Source of the DNA: a virus | Lineage: Duplodnaviria; Heunggongvirae; Uroviricota; Caudoviricetes | DNA: 4,157 nt | Virus record (IMG/VR): IMGVR_UViG_2681813205_000010 | Direction: 5' to 3' (one strand) | In this document: positions 1 to 4,157 of the stretch, piece by piece | How the letters are laid out: every line of letters begins with the position of its first letter | Numbering within the stretch: position 1 is the stretch's first letter | Program-made: the position numbers and the translations under genes | The notes under the pieces: model-generated | The model's input: the letters and a program-made list of their open reading frames with translations, nothing else | What the model was told of the DNA's origin: nothing | Database searches by the model: none

Positions 1-408
1 CTGGTCACGGCTCACCGCTGCGGTGTAAATATCCTGCTGACCGTTCTCCATAATCAGAAACCAGTTAGCCAGAATCGCGGCGGTCGTTGATTTCGCATTT
101 TTGCGCGGCACTTCGATAAAGGCGCTCGTGTATTTGCGCCGTCCGGTGGCCTTAACCTTAAAGCCGAGGATGCACGCAAAGGCGAACTGCTGCCACGGCT
201 CCAGCTCAATGGGTCTGCCACGCATCGGTCCTTTTACGTGCGGGCACACCCTGGAAAAGGCAATAAACCGCTCCACAACCTCACGATCGAACGTGTAAAG
301 GGGGCTTTTAAGATCCGAAAAGTACCGTTTAACGGCCTGTTTCAGCCGTTTACAGGCCGGAATTTTGCCCGTTTTTACGTCTTCTGCGTACTTATTCCAG
401 GCGGTCAA
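1..408 (-). CDS. terL: Terminase large subunit, N-terminal 136 codons; gene continues beyond the window start
   Basis: My own minus-strand translation of 1..408 gives an open frame ending exactly at base 1: (L)TAWNKYAEDVKTGKIPACKRLKQAVKRYFSDLKS...FIEVPRKNAKSTTAAILANWFLIMENGQQDIYTAAVSRDQ. It contains a deviant Walker-A-like stretch PRKNAKST (about 85..108), as expected near the N-terminus of a terminase ATPase domain. It lies directly downstream of terS. The only in-frame start after the upstream stop (451..453) is TTG at 406..408, preceded by GAGGA 5 nt upstream. Not listed in the ORF track, presumably because it lacks an ATG and runs off the window. Confidence 0.75.
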   Translation of the reverse strand, partial: MTAWNKYAEDVKTGKIPACKRLKQAVKRYFSDLKSPLYTFDREVVERFIAFSRVCPHVKGPMRGRPIELEPWQQFAFACILGFKVKATGRRKYTSAFIEVPRKNAKSTTAAILANWFLIMENGQQDIYTAAVSRDQ

Positions 409-748
409 GCTCGTCCTCTTCTTCTGTTTCCGGTGGATTTTTACGGCGGCTTATCGGGTCAAAACCAAGCAAGGAGGCCATTTTTATCATCACTCTTTCA
501 GCGTCGGATTTCGCGCTTAATGCGGGGTTTCTGCTCTCGCCGCCCTGACTGTTAACAATGCTGAACCCGCGCGCCGCAAGGTCTGCGACGGCTTTGCGGT
601 ATATTGAGTAATTGACGCAATACAGTTCCAGATTGCTCCAGTCGGCGGGGGTCAGGTCTCCCCGTTCCGCAAGCTGCCGCGATTTTTCCCGCCACTGCTT
701 CACGGCGATGTCATCCAGGTAGGCGGGGGCTTTCGGTGGTCTTGCCAT
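392..748 (-). CDS. terS: Terminase small subunit, P27-like family
   Basis: 118-aa ORF (MARPPKAPAYLDDIAVKQWREKSRQLAERGDL...GFDPISRRKNPPETEEEDELDRLE) with the size, N-terminal helical DNA-binding-like region and acidic C-terminal tail typical of P27-family small terminases. It sits immediately upstream of, and overlaps, the terL start. Family assignment is from recognition, not a search. Confidence 0.8.
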   Translation of the reverse strand: MARPPKAPAYLDDIAVKQWREKSRQLAERGDLTPADWSNLELYCVNYSIYRKAVADLAARGFSIVNSQGGESRNPALSAKSDAERVMIKMASLLGFDPISRRKNPPETEEEDELDRLE

Positions 749-870
749 GCTTATTTTTCGTCAGATTATTTTTCAAAAAATTCCCGTGCATAAAAATTTG
801 GGGAGGCGTTCGGTGCCCGGCGGGGTCGGGTTTGTCCTGAAACCGCCCCCCCCCCCGCCATACAGCCTCA
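749..870. other. Intergenic region, candidate cos / packaging-initiation site (GC-rich cosN-like segment plus AT-rich cosB-like segment)
   Basis: The only sizeable non-coding gap in the operon, between the HNH/small ORF and terS. About 800..860 is very GC-rich (ggggaggcgttcggtgcccggcggggtcgggtttgtcctgaaaccgccccccccccccgcc) with dyad elements: GGCGGGG at 819..825 against CCCCGCC at 853..859, and GGTTT/AAACC around 829..844. The terS-proximal 749..800 is AT-rich with T and A runs. An HNH-cos-terS-terL arrangement is known from HK97-like cos phages. The function is inferred from position and composition only. Confidence 0.3.
846..856. repeat. Homopolymer tract, C11 on the plus strand (G11 on the coding strand)
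   Basis: Counted directly: bases 846..856 are eleven consecutive C residues, flanked by g845 and g857, inside the intergenic candidate cos region. Confidence 0.9.
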
Positions 871-1044
871 TCAGCGATTGCGGAAACATTCCATAACCTC
901 GCGGTCACGGTCGGTTAATCGCTTCGCTGTGATGCGTTCTGCGCGTCCTGACGCTTTATCTTTATGCCCTGTTTCCTGTGTCTTCCATGCGTCACGCTGC
1001 CTTATAAGTCCACGGATAAGGCGGTTTTGTTCCCGCTCATTCAT
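871..1044 (-). CDS. Hypothetical small basic protein, 57 aa
   Basis: The distal part of the listed 871..1275 minus ORF begins at an internal ATG (1042..1044) placed 5 nt before the HNH stop, so the two genes overlap by 8 nt (ATGAATGA). It encodes MNEREQNRLIRGLIRQRDAWKTQETGHKDKASGRAERITAKRLTDRDREVMECFRNR, which is highly charged and R/K-rich. The part of that ORF upstream of 1044 overlaps HNH out of frame and looks non-coding. No recognisable family. Confidence 0.4.
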   Translation of the reverse strand: MNEREQNRLIRGLIRQRDAWKTQETGHKDKASGRAERITAKRLTDRDREVMECFRNR

Positions 1045-1477
1045 CAGCGTCATACATCCAGTTATTGCGGTTAGCGGCCCGTTCTTCATCTTCACGAAAT
1101 CCACCTGCGGCACGCTTGCTTTTTGTTGCCGGATCAAGCCATTTCGTTTTCTGGTTATGACACGCCTGACACAATGGCTGATGGTTCCATTCGGGCCAGA
1201 AGAGAACATCATCGCCGCCATCGATGGGGATAATGTGATCCACCACCACGGCGGGCGTATATATCCCCTTCTCAAGGCATCGCACGCATAACGGGTTTTT
1301 ACTCAGATACATGGCGCGGTATTTGTCCCACTGTCTGGAGTACCCACGCGCGCGGCGGTGTCCTCGTCTGGCATCCTCTGCACGCCATGCCGCCCGCCTG
1401 TGCTCCTCACACTTACCGGACTTAACGCGCCTGTTACAGCCTGGTTCTGTACATCGTCTTAATGGTTGCCACGGCAT
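1037..1477 (-). CDS. HNH endonuclease, phage terminase-associated type
   Basis: 146-aa ORF with N-terminal Cys-rich segment (RRCTEPGCNRRVKSGKCEEH) and an HNH motif: DHIIPIDGGDD...WNHQPLCQACHNQKT (His, Asn, His plus a CxxC-His zinc-finger-like end). Located next to terS/terL, as in HK97-like packaging modules. Its start ATG (1475..1477) overlaps the connector stop (TGATG). Confidence 0.85.
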   Translation of the reverse strand: MPWQPLRRCTEPGCNRRVKSGKCEEHRRAAWRAEDARRGHRRARGYSRQWDKYRAMYLSKNPLCVRCLEKGIYTPAVVVDHIIPIDGGDDVLFWPEWNHQPLCQACHNQKTKWLDPATKSKRAAGGFREDEERAANRNNWMYDADE

Positions 1478-1770
1478 CAGTACACCCCCACATCACGGTA
1501 AGCCGTCCAGAGTGCGCCTATCGTCATGGGTACGCGCGTTTTTGCGTTATCCGCGACAATCTGGCGATTTTCATACAGGTGAGCGATAAACATCATGCAG
1601 CCAATCTTTATGGCTGGCGTGAACTCCAGCCCGTCATCAAAGCGCCTGCCTATGTGTATCTGGCACGCCTCAAGCGATGCGGCAATGTATCCGCTGATTA
1701 ACTGGTCTTCATCGTCGCCATCGATGCGGCAATGGAGTTTCACTTCTTCCAGGGTGATAAGTTCTGTCAT
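1477..1770 (-). CDS. gp6-like head-tail connector (adaptor) protein
   Basis: 97-aa ORF whose N-terminus MTELITLEEVKLHCRIDGDDEDQLISGYIAASLEACQ matches the conserved signature of gp6-like head-tail connector proteins (xLITLEEAKxHLRIDxDDEDxLI), with a C-terminal AHLYENR-type segment. ATG 1768..1770 overlaps the stop of the upstream gene (ATGA). Confidence 0.8.
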   Translation of the reverse strand: MTELITLEEVKLHCRIDGDDEDQLISGYIAASLEACQIHIGRRFDDGLEFTPAIKIGCMMFIAHLYENRQIVADNAKTRVPMTIGALWTAYRDVGVY

Positions 1771-2105
1771 TTTTCCGCGCCCTCACGACAAAGAATTTCA
1801 AGGCGTGTCCTGGCGGCATCTGGCAGCGGTTGCCCGATGATATTCAGTACACGCCCCGCCAGCGGCCCCGTATTGACCTTTATCCGACTGGTGGCGTTGA
1901 TGTCCTTCCGGTAGCGTATCCATATCCTTACAGTTCCAGTCGCCAGCTCTGCACCTGATGAAATGGCCTCCTTGCTGCTGATCATGTTCACGCTTGCCCA
2001 GAGTGTGTGACCGTCCAGCCACGTTTCGAGTATTTCACCCGTCATGGCTCTGGTCTGTTTCAGGGTCTGAATCGTTACCCTGTCACGCAGTCGCCCTATG
2101 TTCAT
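1767..2105 (-). CDS. Head closure / head-tail joining protein (SPP1 gp16-like)
   Basis: 112 aa from the internal ATG at 2103..2105: MNIGRLRDRVTIQTLKQTRAMTGEILETW...GTVRIWIRYRKDINATSRIKVNTGPLAGRVLNIIGQP. The N-terminal xxGRLRxRVTIQ and the central RIRYR-type motif are typical of this family. The listed ORF extends to 2147, but that extension overlaps the portal 3' end out of frame; ATG 2105 overlaps the portal stop (ATGA) and has GAGGGAG upstream. Confidence 0.75.
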   Translation of the reverse strand: MNIGRLRDRVTIQTLKQTRAMTGEILETWLDGHTLWASVNMISSKEAISSGAELATGTVRIWIRYRKDINATSRIKVNTGPLAGRVLNIIGQPLPDAARTRLEILCREGAEK

Positions 2106-3313
2106 TCCGGTTTTTCTCCCTCGCTGATTTTTACTTCCTGTTTCCATGCCTGGCTGAACTCATCACCACCATCACGCGGTGACAGTCCTTCACGTTCGCG
2201 GGCTTCGTTCGGACACATAACGCCGGATTTGATGCCGCGCTCATAGGTGGCAAAGCGTTCGCCAGGTGTGGCCCGTAACAGGTCCGCGCTGTCAAACTCC
2301 ACCTGATACCGGATACCAGGTACAGGCGAGGCCACCAGCAGGGCGTTTTTTATCTGCTGCTCAAAGTTCGCCAGCCACGGGCGCATCGTCATGGTGAGAA
2401 ATGCGCGGCTTGCCTCGCTGAAATTGCTGTAGGTGCTGTTGCTGTATTCCTGCAAAAAAATCGGCGAGACGTTGAACATTCTGGCGATGTCTTCAATGGT
2501 GAAGCGACGGGAGGCCAGCCATTCAGCATCCTGATTACTCATGCCCAGCTGCTGATAGCTCATACCCCCTTCAAGGATGGGCGTTTTTCCGGCGTTTCTG
2601 GCCCCTTTGTAGCGTTCCAGTGCGGCTAATGCCTGTTTGCCCTTCACGCCGTCCAGCCATTCGCCTGACGTGATAACCCCTGCCGCCATCATGCCATCAC
2701 GCATCACGCTCGCGCCGTGGCGTTGTTGGGCCAGCCCAAGCCCCAGCGATTCGCGGCAGATGGTTACAGGTGAGCGCCCCATAAAACCGTCATCCGTGGA
2801 GTAACGAAGGTGGAGAACCTCCCACGGTAAATAGTTGCGGGTGTTTCCGGTGTAAGCGTCAGTGATGCAGTAGCGCCAGTTGTGTTCTCCTGTCTGCTCC
2901 ATGTTCACCGACTGCGGCGGGTAAGGATGCAAAGCCGCCGGAAAACCATCACGCCCCCACTGAATCACCGCGTAAGCATTACCGTTTAACAGGCAGTGGC
3001 GGATCATCATTCGCTTAAACTGGTAGGGAGTCTGCCACGCGTTCGGGCGCTCGTTGAGGATGTGATCGACCGGATGAGAATCAAGCCACTCGCGGGCCTC
3101 CTTCCCCTTCTCATTGCGTACCAGGTACAGGTAACACGGCATGGTAGCCACCGCCTCAGAGATGACCGTCACGGCGTTCATGACGGCGGGCAGTGATTCC
3201 GCTGTCCCCGATGATACGTACTCACCCGCCCCCGTGTTCGATGTGCCAGCCAGCGCCATAAACTCATCAAGCGTCATGCTGCGCTGCTCTTTTTTTCTTC
3301 TGAAAGGCCACAT
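2102..3313 (-). CDS. Portal protein, HK97 family
   Basis: 403-aa ORF of the size and composition expected for HK97-type portal proteins, placed between the prohead protease and head-completion genes. A GGGGGTG Shine-Dalgarno-like element lies about 7 nt upstream of ATG 3311..3313. Family assignment is by recognition of the overall sequence, not a search. Confidence 0.85.
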   Translation of the reverse strand: MWPFRRKKEQRSMTLDEFMALAGTSNTGAGEYVSSGTAESLPAVMNAVTVISEAVATMPCYLYLVRNEKGKEAREWLDSHPVDHILNERPNAWQTPYQFKRMMIRHCLLNGNAYAVIQWGRDGFPAALHPYPPQSVNMEQTGEHNWRYCITDAYTGNTRNYLPWEVLHLRYSTDDGFMGRSPVTICRESLGLGLAQQRHGASVMRDGMMAAGVITSGEWLDGVKGKQALAALERYKGARNAGKTPILEGGMSYQQLGMSNQDAEWLASRRFTIEDIARMFNVSPIFLQEYSNSTYSNFSEASRAFLTMTMRPWLANFEQQIKNALLVASPVPGIRYQVEFDSADLLRATPGERFATYERGIKSGVMCPNEAREREGLSPRDGGDEFSQAWKQEVKISEGEKPE

Positions 3314-3314
3314 A

Positions 3315-3887
3315 TCACACCCCCGCTAAATCCGCCCACCAGCGGCGATTATCCGCACGCGGCATTTTTTCGGGGTGCTGCTCGTACAGGGAGCGGCGGG
3401 CCAGCTCCACGCCGGAATCAGGGTAAGCCGGTACGGATGTGACGGTAATTTCGTACAGTTCCGCAACCAGCACGGTGCGCACGCATGGATCTGTTGTGGT
3501 ATCCCATACATCCTTACGGGAACGAAAGCCAAAGCTCATGCCGGATATATCACCACGCTTAACCAGTTCGATAACGTCGCGCCCTGTACTGGTATCCGGT
3601 GGGGTCAGTTCAAAGCGTAACCCTGTTTCATCCTCTTCCAGTTTCAGCGTGCCGGAACGGGTGCGCCCCAGTAACATACTGTGGTCATGCTCATACAGGC
3701 CGCGAACGTCATTACCCGCCGCAAGCCATTCAGTAAACGCCCCCCGCTGGAATTTTTCGTAAAACTCACCCCATAACAGTTCTGAAAGCTTATCCCAGCG
3801 AACAACGTAGCCTGTAAGCGTGTTGCTGCCGCTGGTGGTGATTTCCGATGACCGGATTTCCATACTCTTCATAATTTTTTCACCCAT
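3315..3887 (-). CDS. Prohead maturation protease, HK97 family (peptidase S78)
   Basis: 190-aa ORF with a characteristic prohead protease core: GAFTEWLAAGNDVRGLYEHDHSMLLGRTRSGTLKLEEDETGLRFEL...RGDISGMSFGFRS, which includes candidate catalytic His and Ser contexts. The start is ambiguous between ATG 3887, 3872 and 3863 (MGEKIMKSMEIR); none has a strong Shine-Dalgarno. The stop is 1 nt before the portal start. Confidence 0.85.
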   Translation of the reverse strand: MGEKIMKSMEIRSSEITTSGSNTLTGYVVRWDKLSELLWGEFYEKFQRGAFTEWLAAGNDVRGLYEHDHSMLLGRTRSGTLKLEEDETGLRFELTPPDTSTGRDVIELVKRGDISGMSFGFRSRKDVWDTTTDPCVRTVLVAELYEITVTSVPAYPDSGVELARRSLYEQHPEKMPRADNRRWWADLAGV

Positions 3888-3896
3888 AAAACACTA

Positions 3897-3916
3897 AAGG
3901 GGCTTTTAAGCCCCTT
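3897..3916 (-). terminator. Intrinsic terminator-like hairpin between the upstream gene and the protease gene
   Basis: On the minus-strand RNA: AAGGGGCU-UAAA-AGCCCCUU (8-bp stem, 4-nt loop) followed at once by UAGUGUUUU, then the protease AUG. It sits in the 37-nt gap between the stop at 3927..3929 and the ATG at 3887. The plus-strand version lacks a comparable U tract. Confidence 0.45.
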
Positions 3917-3926
3917 CTGTATGCTG

Positions 3927-4157
3927 TTAATCGTCGTCCTGTGGCAGTTCCAGAATCTTGATCGCGTTCGAATCCACCACGCCACCGCCTAAATATTTCT
4001 GCGTGAAAATTTTGAGGAAGCGCGGCTCTGTGAGCATGTCCGGTCTGGTGCGAACACCTGTTTGGTGAGCAACAATACAGTAACCGCGTTTGCAGTCACC
4101 CAGGGCAATATGGTTAACCGGCATAAACGCCAGATATTTGACCGTGAGGCCCAGCAA
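3927..4157 (-). CDS. C-terminal fragment of an upstream gene (5' end outside the window); possibly the major capsid protein
   Basis: Open frame running off the right edge and ending at TAA 3927..3929 (…GYCIVAHQTGVRTRPDMLTEPRFLKIFTQKYLGGGVVDSNAIKILELPQDDD). The leading M in the ORF track is a window-edge artefact, since the first codon is TTG. It is followed by a terminator-like hairpin, as is common after highly expressed capsid genes. Capsid identity is inferred from position only; I do not recognise the sequence. Confidence 0.45.
   Translation of the reverse strand: MLGLTVKYLAFMPVNHIALGDCKRGYCIVAHQTGVRTRPDMLTEPRFLKIFTQKYLGGGVVDSNAIKILELPQDDD

Follow-up and report, generated by a model that had tools for sequence, protein, structure and literature searches.

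A 4,157-nucleotide stretch of DNA on record as viral (IMG/VR IMGVR_UViG_2681813205_000010; this whole stretch is referred to here as the window) carries phage-type head and packaging genes in an unusual order, which raises the question of what kind of element it comes from. An earlier note had suggested that it belongs to a capsid-forming phage-inducible chromosomal island (cf-PICI) and not to an ordinary prophage, with an undescribed, rearranged phage lineage as the alternative. Here we conclude that the window almost certainly represents the operon for head assembly and DNA packaging of an EcCIEDL933-type cf-PICI, carried by an E. coli-like chromosome. Its unusual gene order is real, yet already described, and the alternative of an undescribed lineage is unsupported because the lineage is already known.

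Gene content and order

All genes of the window lie on the minus strand, as determined from the open reading frame (ORF) listing and Pfam (Table 1), and are transcribed in the order capsid (C-terminal part), prohead protease, portal, head-completion protein or adaptor, gp6-like connector, HNH endonuclease, 60-aa ORF, intergenic region, terS and terL (N-terminal part). The same two sources confirmed each gene named in the earlier note, their placement on one strand and the position of the head genes ahead of HNH and terminase; that list had, however, overlooked the 60-aa ORF between HNH and terS. All seven complete genes are intact in the ORF listing, and the capsid and terL genes, which are cut by the window edges, are full length in relatives, where terL is annotated with 553 aa. 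Rfam and tRNA scans found no RNA or tRNA feature in the window.

Table 1. Annotated features of the window, listed in the direction of transcription.
Feature	Position	Strand	Evidence	Remarks
Major capsid protein gene, 3' end	3927..4157	-	Pfam Phage_capsid, E 2e-4	Last 76 codons and stop; continues past the window edge; homologue of EcCIEDL933 gene 1786
Prohead maturation serine protease, 190 aa	3315..3887	-	Pfam Peptidase_S78, E 4e-48	
Portal protein, 403 aa	2102..3313	-	Pfam Phage_portal, E 4e-90	
Head-completion protein, 112 aa	1767..2105	-	Pfam Phage_HCP, E 1e-22	'Head-tail adaptor' in cf-PICI papers; start at 2105 from RefSeq annotation of a relative (longest ORF begins at 2147)
gp6-like head-tail connector, 97 aa	1477..1770	-	Pfam Phage_connect_1, E 5e-12	
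HNH endonuclease, 146 aa	1037..1477	-	Pfam HNH, E 1e-8	
60-aa ORF	871..1053	-	Annotated as WP_000174068.1 in JB2, O157:H7 strain 2571 and EDL933	Overlaps the HNH stop
Intergenic region with putative cos site	749..870	.	G/C-rich inverted repeat	
terS, small terminase subunit, P27 family, 118 aa	392..748	-	Pfam Terminase_4, E 1e-23	
terL, 5' part	1..408	-	Pfam TerL_ATPase, E 4e-6	First 136 codons; TTG start at 408; 17-nt overlap with terS; continues past the window edge

The relative order of these genes was said to be reversed compared with HK97-like phages, and a direct comparison with Shigella phage SfIV bears this out. In SfIV the seven Pfam families run canonically, in the order terS-terL-portal-protease-capsid-connector-closure-tail; since the same families occur there in canonical order, the reversed order of the window is real and no wrong-strand artefact. 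The arrangement of a complete HK97-like temperate prophage, with canonical order followed by tail genes, is thus not that of the window.

The HNH protein is the terminase-associated nuclease of HK97-type cos packaging. The 60-aa ORF belongs to PHROG phrog_3173, a family of unknown function, and counting from the capsid gene as 1786 it probably corresponds in EcCIEDL933 to 'hypothetical gene 1792', mutation of which caused a severe drop in island transfer in the published work on that element. Between HNH and terS, a G/C-rich inverted repeat (arms 819-830 and 848-859) surrounds the motif GGTTTCAGGAC, and the end of the linear genome of Escherichia phage vB_KppS-Ant (LR881103.1, 16.5 kb), which begins just ahead of terS, maps to window position 834|833 within the spacer of this repeat. 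Judging from these features, this intergenic region probably holds the putative cos site of the island.

Relationship to the published prototype

A conserved layout of capsid-protease-portal-head connectors followed by hnh-terS-terL has been described for Proteobacterial cf-PICIs (Alqurainy et al., bioRxiv 10.1101/2022.09.08.507074), and that paper reports family members with packaging genes 50-90% related to those of EcCIEDL933. The cf-PICI assignment is supported by this layout and by 97.4% DNA identity, over all 4157 bases, between the window and the packaging module of EcCIEDL933, an island located between roxA and phoQ in E. coli EDL933. Comparison with characterised proteins, as the earlier note had advised, points the same way: across the seven complete genes and the terL fragment, amino acid identity to EDL933 is 95.5-100% (protease 98.9%, portal 99.0%, head-completion 95.5%, connector 98.9%, HNH 99.3%, 60-aa ORF 100%, terS 100% and terL fragment 99.3%), while portal identity to true phages reaches at most 35.5%. 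In the head-completion protein, the two copies differ at 5 of 112 residues. We observe that a correct and recently described family had been inferred in the earlier note from gene order alone.

EcCIEDL933 is the experimentally characterised cf-PICI prototype, 15.4 kb as published and mobile in experiments. Published knockouts of each gene of its packaging module abolished transfer of the island but not of the phage, phage tail mutants abolished transfer of both, and its T=4 capsid has been solved by cryo-EM (10.1101/2025.02.11.637232; PDB 9gyi). The full 385-aa JB2 capsid matches the 'Major head protein' of that structure over residues 1-385 (E 1e-254). Since a prototype with 97% identical DNA has already been dissected genetically and structurally, the window adds nothing new for biology in this respect.

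The experiments on this 97%-identical prototype suggest a mechanism that we infer for the window copy. A helper phage would trigger the island through the AlpA regulator, whereupon the island would excise and then replicate. Its capsid protein, protease and portal would form small T=4 capsids of HK97 fold, and its HNH-TerS-TerL terminase would recognise and cut the island's own cos, probably in the HNH-terS intergenic region, packing only the island genome of about 15 kb into these capsids. The head-completion protein (adaptor) and the gp6-like connector would then complete the neck, allowing it to dock onto phage-made tails (those of HK106 for the prototype), the island itself presumably lacking genes for tails or lysis. 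Experiments have shown helper-dependent induction, self-made small capsids and dependence on phage tails for EcCIEDL933 and a few others only.

Genomic context of close relatives

Our evidence on integrase, AlpA, replication genes, att sites and the absence of tails comes from relatives at 97-99.5% identity. In the closest, strain JB2 (99.5% DNA identity to the window), the island interrupts tqsA, measures 15.27 kb and has a 9-bp TGCTGTTAT duplication at its ends, as seen against the uninterrupted K-12 tqsA; a 27-bp direct repeat near both island ends was rejected as the att core, which was set by the K-12 comparison. The insert carries an integrase, Phage_AlpA, an AAA_25/RepA helicase, SSB, PerC and the packaging module. 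Neither RefSeq annotation nor Pfam nor PHROGs revealed a tail, holin or lysin gene in it. The flanks predicted in the earlier note (integrase, AlpA, replication genes, an island-sized element with end repeats, no tail or lysis genes) are therefore those of the JB2 copy. Phage_integrase, Phage_AlpA and a replication module with AAA_25 helicase and SSB likewise lie upstream of the packaging module in two further 99.5% relatives; the sizes of the JB2 and EDL933 islands fall within the cf-PICI range of about 10-18 kb with att repeats, and by RefSeq annotation, precomputed Pfam and PHROGs the relatives lack lysis genes and a tail module, as is characteristic of cf-PICIs.

The window alone is silent on genes past its edges. 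In principle tail and lysis genes could follow there, which would make the source a complete temperate phage from an undescribed lineage in which the modules are rearranged; the related record vB_KppS-Ant does have a gene annotated as 'tape measure' after terL. However, wherever a near-identical context was examined, a single ORF of 93 or 102 aa separates terL from host genes, and regulation and replication genes and an integrase occupy the capsid side. Tail genes beside terL or capsid, which the earlier note had named as grounds for abandoning its proposal, were not found in any context examined, and none of the ten small ORFs of unknown function in the relatives matched a tail or lysis family in a PHROGs scan. 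Islands of the size of the JB2 and EDL933 copies are also too small for a tailed phage with such head genes, and we give the possibility of a complete phage practically no weight.

Of 5426 complete E. coli genomes, 534 contain matches to the window, in every case on the chromosome, and both the chromosomal site of the packaging module and the replication module that accompanies it vary. In the collection, 851 blocks contain the portal protein; among the loci read, the best was 99.5% identical to the window and none was exact. This distribution bears on a further possibility, that of a cryptic or decaying prophage remnant, in which deletion has stripped an HK97-like prophage of its tail and lysis modules, leaving head and packaging genes that no longer form a working unit. 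Phage-type structural genes without tails are the typical look of defective prophages, and the EDL933 copy was originally annotated as a cryptic prophage. Decay is nevertheless difficult to reconcile with the intactness of all seven complete genes, with a gene order unlike that of phages and beyond what simple deletion yields, with a 15-kb unit that has precise att boundaries at several chromosomal sites in hundreds of genomes, with proteins sharing no more than about 35% identity with true phages, and with a prototype that is experimentally mobile and needs every gene for transfer. The remnant interpretation is largely refuted and retains a very slight probability.

A substitution patch at the capsid C-terminus

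The window departs from its relatives in one place. Within its last ~130 bases (4016-4146), corresponding to the capsid C-terminus, 16 substitutions are found in no relative; of 18 window positions at which no covering relative shares the base of the window, 16 lie here (34-51 relatives per position; binomial P ~1e-22). Codon changes in the patch comprise 12 non-synonymous against 2 synonymous, with 4 transitions against 13 transversions, whereas natural divergence between two alleles of the module shows 23:132 and 114:43, respectively (Fisher P 7e-8 and 1e-4). The resulting 12 private amino acid replacements, which remove five acidic residues and add two cysteines, fall in a segment with one and the same sequence in 46 of 51 relatives.

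A window-specific 29-mer had 0 matches in genome, metagenome and viral collections, compared with 31 viral and 12 metagenome matches for the common allele as control, and a degenerate back-translated 33-mer matched nothing in the genome, metagenome or viral collections searched. As for possible sources, no recombination donor was found, as no complete E. coli genome exceeded 94% identity there, and a diversity-generating retroelement was ruled out because the changes are not adenine-specific.

With its mostly non-synonymous transversions, the patch resembles sequence error or unselected damage more than it does a natural allele. We somewhat favour the view that this is a genuine cf-PICI whose copy is non-functional or whose sequence is corrupted at the end, either by sequencing or assembly error near a contig end or through real, unselected capsid damage; the clustering of the private positions, their codon and transversion pattern, the constancy of the segment among relatives and the failure of the 29-mer to recur are all in its favour. 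Weighing against this, the reading frame is open and without indels, leaving room for a functional variant, and the 29-mer used to retrieve 43 of the 51 relatives itself fixes 4 of the 17 positions. If the 12 replacements are real, the capsid of the window copy may be non-functional. That they represent a real and adaptive burst of diversification in a satellite capsid protein appears improbable; were it so, escape from a capsid-sensing host defence or altered capsid assembly might be involved. The cluster at the window edge serves mainly as a data-quality flag.

Comparison with known systems

Cf-PICIs are abundant satellites. They produce small capsids themselves and take from phages only the tails, an arrangement that allows movement between species, and labelling the window as cf-PICI avoids its annotation as a defective prophage. 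With HK97-like cos phages that use an HNH-assisted terminase (comparator SfIV; the published helper phage HK106 is of this kind), the window has in common the families Terminase_4, TerL, Phage_portal, Peptidase_S78, Phage_capsid, Phage_connect_1 and Phage_HCP, and the cf-PICI capsid also has the HK97 fold. In contrast, those phages have canonical gene order, genomes of ~40 kb with tail and lysis genes, T=7 rather than T=4 capsids, and portals only ~30-35% identical to that of the window.

Classical Gram-negative PICIs (EcCICFT073, EcCIED1a) resemble cf-PICIs in their int-alpA-replication left half and in AlpA-dependent induction by a helper phage. They differ in using helper capsid proteins and in having no capsid, portal, connectors or terL of their own, and in the PICI model of SatelliteFinder the portal, connector and adaptor of cf-PICIs count as forbidden components. 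By Pfam, the window carries portal, adaptor, connector and terL, and is not a classical PICI.

Apart from two satellite-sized genomes (15.3-16.5 kb), a 3.8-kb fragment and one end of a 106-kb record, no 'phage' record exceeds 60% portal identity. The two genomes, vB_KppS-Ant (portal 81% identical) and Pasteurella phage Pmp8 (OR544139.1, 15.3 kb; 62%), differ from the window in having ~70% DNA identity and other accessory and replication genes, and in vB_KppS-Ant the gene annotated as tape measure encodes 765 aa. OR845787.1, whose host is ATCC 43895 (EDL933), had at 70.6% suggested EcCIEDL933 as a distant relative, which was rejected when EDL933 itself gave the far higher identity reported above. 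This record is an unverified wastewater contig.

EcCIEDL933 itself has the nine genes of the window in identical order and orientation. As differences, the 99.5% relatives of the window are inserted in tqsA, not between roxA and phoQ, and carry a RepA/AAA_25 helicase where EcCIEDL933 has a DUF927 primase-type replication gene, their integrase regions are ~92% identical in DNA to that of EcCIEDL933, and the window alone has the 12 private replacements in its capsid C-terminus.

Gene order and near-identity with EcCIEDL933

The window is filled by an unbroken run of minus-strand ORFs in the six-frame ORF list. The earlier note had described the head genes as preceding the packaging genes, with protease before portal and head closure before connector, and Pfam order bears out each of these points; the description is correct because Shigella phage SfIV, read directly, shares seven of these families and arranges them canonically, as terS, terL, portal, protease, capsid, gp6-like connector and head completion, followed by tail genes, so that both pairs run opposite to those of the window. 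Missing from that gene list was a 60-aa ORF that lies between HNH and terS, with a 17-nt overlap at the HNH stop.

Features of the window, with protein identity to the EDL933 element
Feature	Position	Strand	Evidence or remark	Identity with EDL933
Phage_capsid	4157-3927	minus	Pfam E 2e-4; last 76 codons only	84.2% (fragment)
Private-substitution cluster	4016-4146	minus	capsid codons ~314-352; 16 substitutions, no indels	
Peptidase_S78 prohead protease	3887-3315	minus	Pfam E 4e-48	98.9%
Phage_portal	3313-2102	minus	Pfam E 4e-90	99.0%
Phage_HCP head completion (adaptor)	2105-1767	minus	Pfam E 1e-22	95.5%
Phage_connect_1 gp6-like connector	1770-1477	minus	Pfam E 5e-12	98.9%
HNH	1477-1037	minus	Pfam E 1e-8	99.3%
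60-aa ORF	1053-871	minus	without Pfam match; annotated in every relative; PHROG phrog_3173	100%
Intergenic region, 122 bp	870-749		between 60-aa ORF and terS	
Terminase_4 small terminase (terS)	748-392	minus	Pfam E 1e-23	100%
TerL_ATPase	408-1	minus	Pfam E 4e-6; first 136 codons only	99.3% (fragment)

The proposal that this arrangement marks a capsid-forming phage-inducible chromosomal island (cf-PICI) is supported by an end-to-end alignment, 97.4% identical in DNA, to an element of E. coli O157:H7 EDL933 flanked by roxA and phoQ. This is the prototype EcCIEDL933; its published description gives a length of 15.4 kb and the genes int, alpA, rep, capsid, protease, portal, head-tail connectors, HNH, terS and terL, but no tail genes (10.1101/2022.09.08.507074). 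Among 5426 complete E. coli genomes, megablast found matches to the window in 534, all of them chromosomal and none plasmid-borne, with coverage of at least 80% in 375 genomes; strain JB2 was the top match (99.5%), and O157:H7 strains reached ~97.8%. The family has already been described and experimentally dissected and the window is nearly identical to its prototype, so the finding is already known, and its weight beyond the known family lies in correct annotation. A private change in terS, at 605, leaves the encoded protein identical to that of EDL933.

Comparison with phages

A portal more than 60% identical to that of the window occurs in only four of 50,697 phage records: vB_KppS-Ant (16.5 kb), Pasteurella phage Pmp8 (15.3 kb), a 3.8-kb fragment, and the 106-kb Klebsiella phage P12620-1, where the module lies at the extreme end (103264-106364), possibly as an assembly chimera. 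In true phages portal identity is at most 35.5% throughout, in agreement with the published low similarity of EcCIEDL933-type proteins to phage proteins (10.1101/2022.09.08.507074). DNA comparison linked the window to just six phage records. vB_KppS-Ant shares the capsid-to-terL order and also carries an integrase and a primase; a 765-aa gene after its terL, annotated 'tail length tape measure protein', is possibly an accessory gene with the wrong label. LR881103.1 (vB_KppS-Ant), OR544139.1 (Pmp8) and PQ569648.1 were deposited as phages and resemble cf-PICIs.

Island context in relatives

Since the collections searched contained no exact match to the window, island context was taken from relatives, the closest being 99.5% identical. 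In JB2 the island interrupts tqsA, with 15.27 kb inserted between two copies of TGCTGTTAT by comparison with the uninterrupted K-12 gene. From the integrase end it encodes a tyrosine integrase, a Phage_AlpA regulator, an Icd-like protein and several small ORFs, then a DUF4222 protein, an AAA_25/RepA helicase, SSB and PerC, followed by the nine genes of the window and, after terL, a single 93-aa ORF. The integrase, AlpA, replication genes and end duplication predicted in the earlier note for the flanks of a cf-PICI are thus all seen in this relative. In a PHROGs scan of ten small ORFs of unknown function in relatives, a single transcriptional-repressor family came up; the other families matched have no assigned function, and none is a tail, holin or lysin family.

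A 27-bp perfect direct repeat, AAAGTGACTACACCAGTGACTACACCG, which itself holds GTGACTACACC twice, was also found in JB2 (17757-17783 and 32803-32829). It sits just inside both island ends, was rejected as an att core, and may represent arm-type binding sites for the integrase.

In O157:H7 the packaging module occupies a site between roxA and phoQ and is accompanied by a DUF927-type (primase-type) replication gene. In a third context (locus L009), DUF3892 and Mg-chelatase-like genes come after it. These several insertion contexts fit the six attB sites published for such islands in E. coli (10.1101/2022.09.08.507074). Packaging modules that share ~97% identity are combined with different left halves at different chromosomal sites (JB2 locus, 17687-32956; EDL933 locus, ~4100-19500; and L009), JB2 pairing tqsA with the RepA/AAA_25 helicase whereas EDL933 pairs roxA-phoQ with the DUF927 gene; the replication and packaging halves are a case of modular mosaicism. 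In another relative 99.5% identical to the window (L007), HNH and the 60-aa ORF are called as a single 201-aa product (11838-12443), which suggests an indel fusing the two.

Putative cos region

The linear genome of vB_KppS-Ant begins 22 bases before terS and ends just past the small ORF downstream of HNH, and the terminus maps to window 834|833, a point that falls in the conserved motif GGTTT(T/C)AGGAC, between the arms of a G/C-rich inverted repeat. On this sequence evidence, which is suggestive only, a cos site may lie in the intergenic region upstream of terS; no description of a cf-PICI cos site was found in the literature examined. Relative to JB2, the window carries T-to-G changes (minus strand) at 843, private to it, and at 852, variable among relatives, by which GGGGTGGGGGGCGT becomes ten consecutive G within a conserved G-rich motif of this region.

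Substitution cluster in the capsid C-terminus

The sole item in the window left without explanation is a cluster of substitutions in the capsid C-terminus. Of 20 differences from JB2, 17 fall within 4016-4148, and of 18 positions at which the window base occurs in no relative (34-51 relatives per position), 16 fall within the cluster (binomial P ~1e-22). Against JB2, this patch shows a ratio of non-synonymous to synonymous codons of 12:2 and of transitions to transversions of 4:13, compared with 23:132 and 114:43 in the natural divergence between JB2 and EDL933 (Fisher test, P 7e-8 and 1e-4, respectively). The encoded segment, unchanged in 46 of 51 relatives, has five fewer acidic residues and two more cysteines in the window. 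Identity over the patch exceeded 94% in none of the complete E. coli genomes, and a window-specific 29-mer was absent from genome, metagenome and viral collections; the common allele, as a control, gave 31 matches in the viral collection and 12 in the metagenome collection. A degenerate back-translated pattern likewise found no match, and no collection searched yielded a donor sequence. The spectrum matches that of random, unselected substitution; therefore an error in the sequence close to an end, or damage without selection, seems a likelier source than a natural functional allele, and that the cluster is a real adaptive variant is highly improbable.

Mechanism and relation to known particles

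The mechanism is established for the prototype and would, by analogy, extend to the window's copy. EcCIEDL933 is induced by helper phages HK106 and HK446 and requires alpA (10.1101/2022.09.08.507074). Separate mutation of each packaging-module gene abolished island transfer and left phage titres unchanged, except for hypothetical gene 1792, whose mutation reduced transfer severely without abolishing it; counting consecutive locus tags from 1786, the capsid, this gene is probably the 60-aa ORF. Mutation of the homologous phage genes stopped the phage and not the island; with mutations in the tape-measure or major tail genes of the phage, both were blocked. The usable phage tails are set by the adaptor and connector proteins of the cf-PICI, as published.

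The shell built from the gene 1786 product measures 47.5 nm, has T=4 architecture and the HK97 fold, and has room for ~15.5 kb (10.1101/2025.02.11.637232), and the full-length JB2 capsid matches PDB 9gyi over its entire length. After 9gyi, the solved capsid closest to that of JB2 (23927-25084 in its locus) belongs to the gene transfer agent of Rhodobacter capsulatus (6tb9/6tba, E ~1e-46), whose portal is also matched by the window portal (E 7e-20); this agent is likewise a small-capsid, HK97-derived particle.
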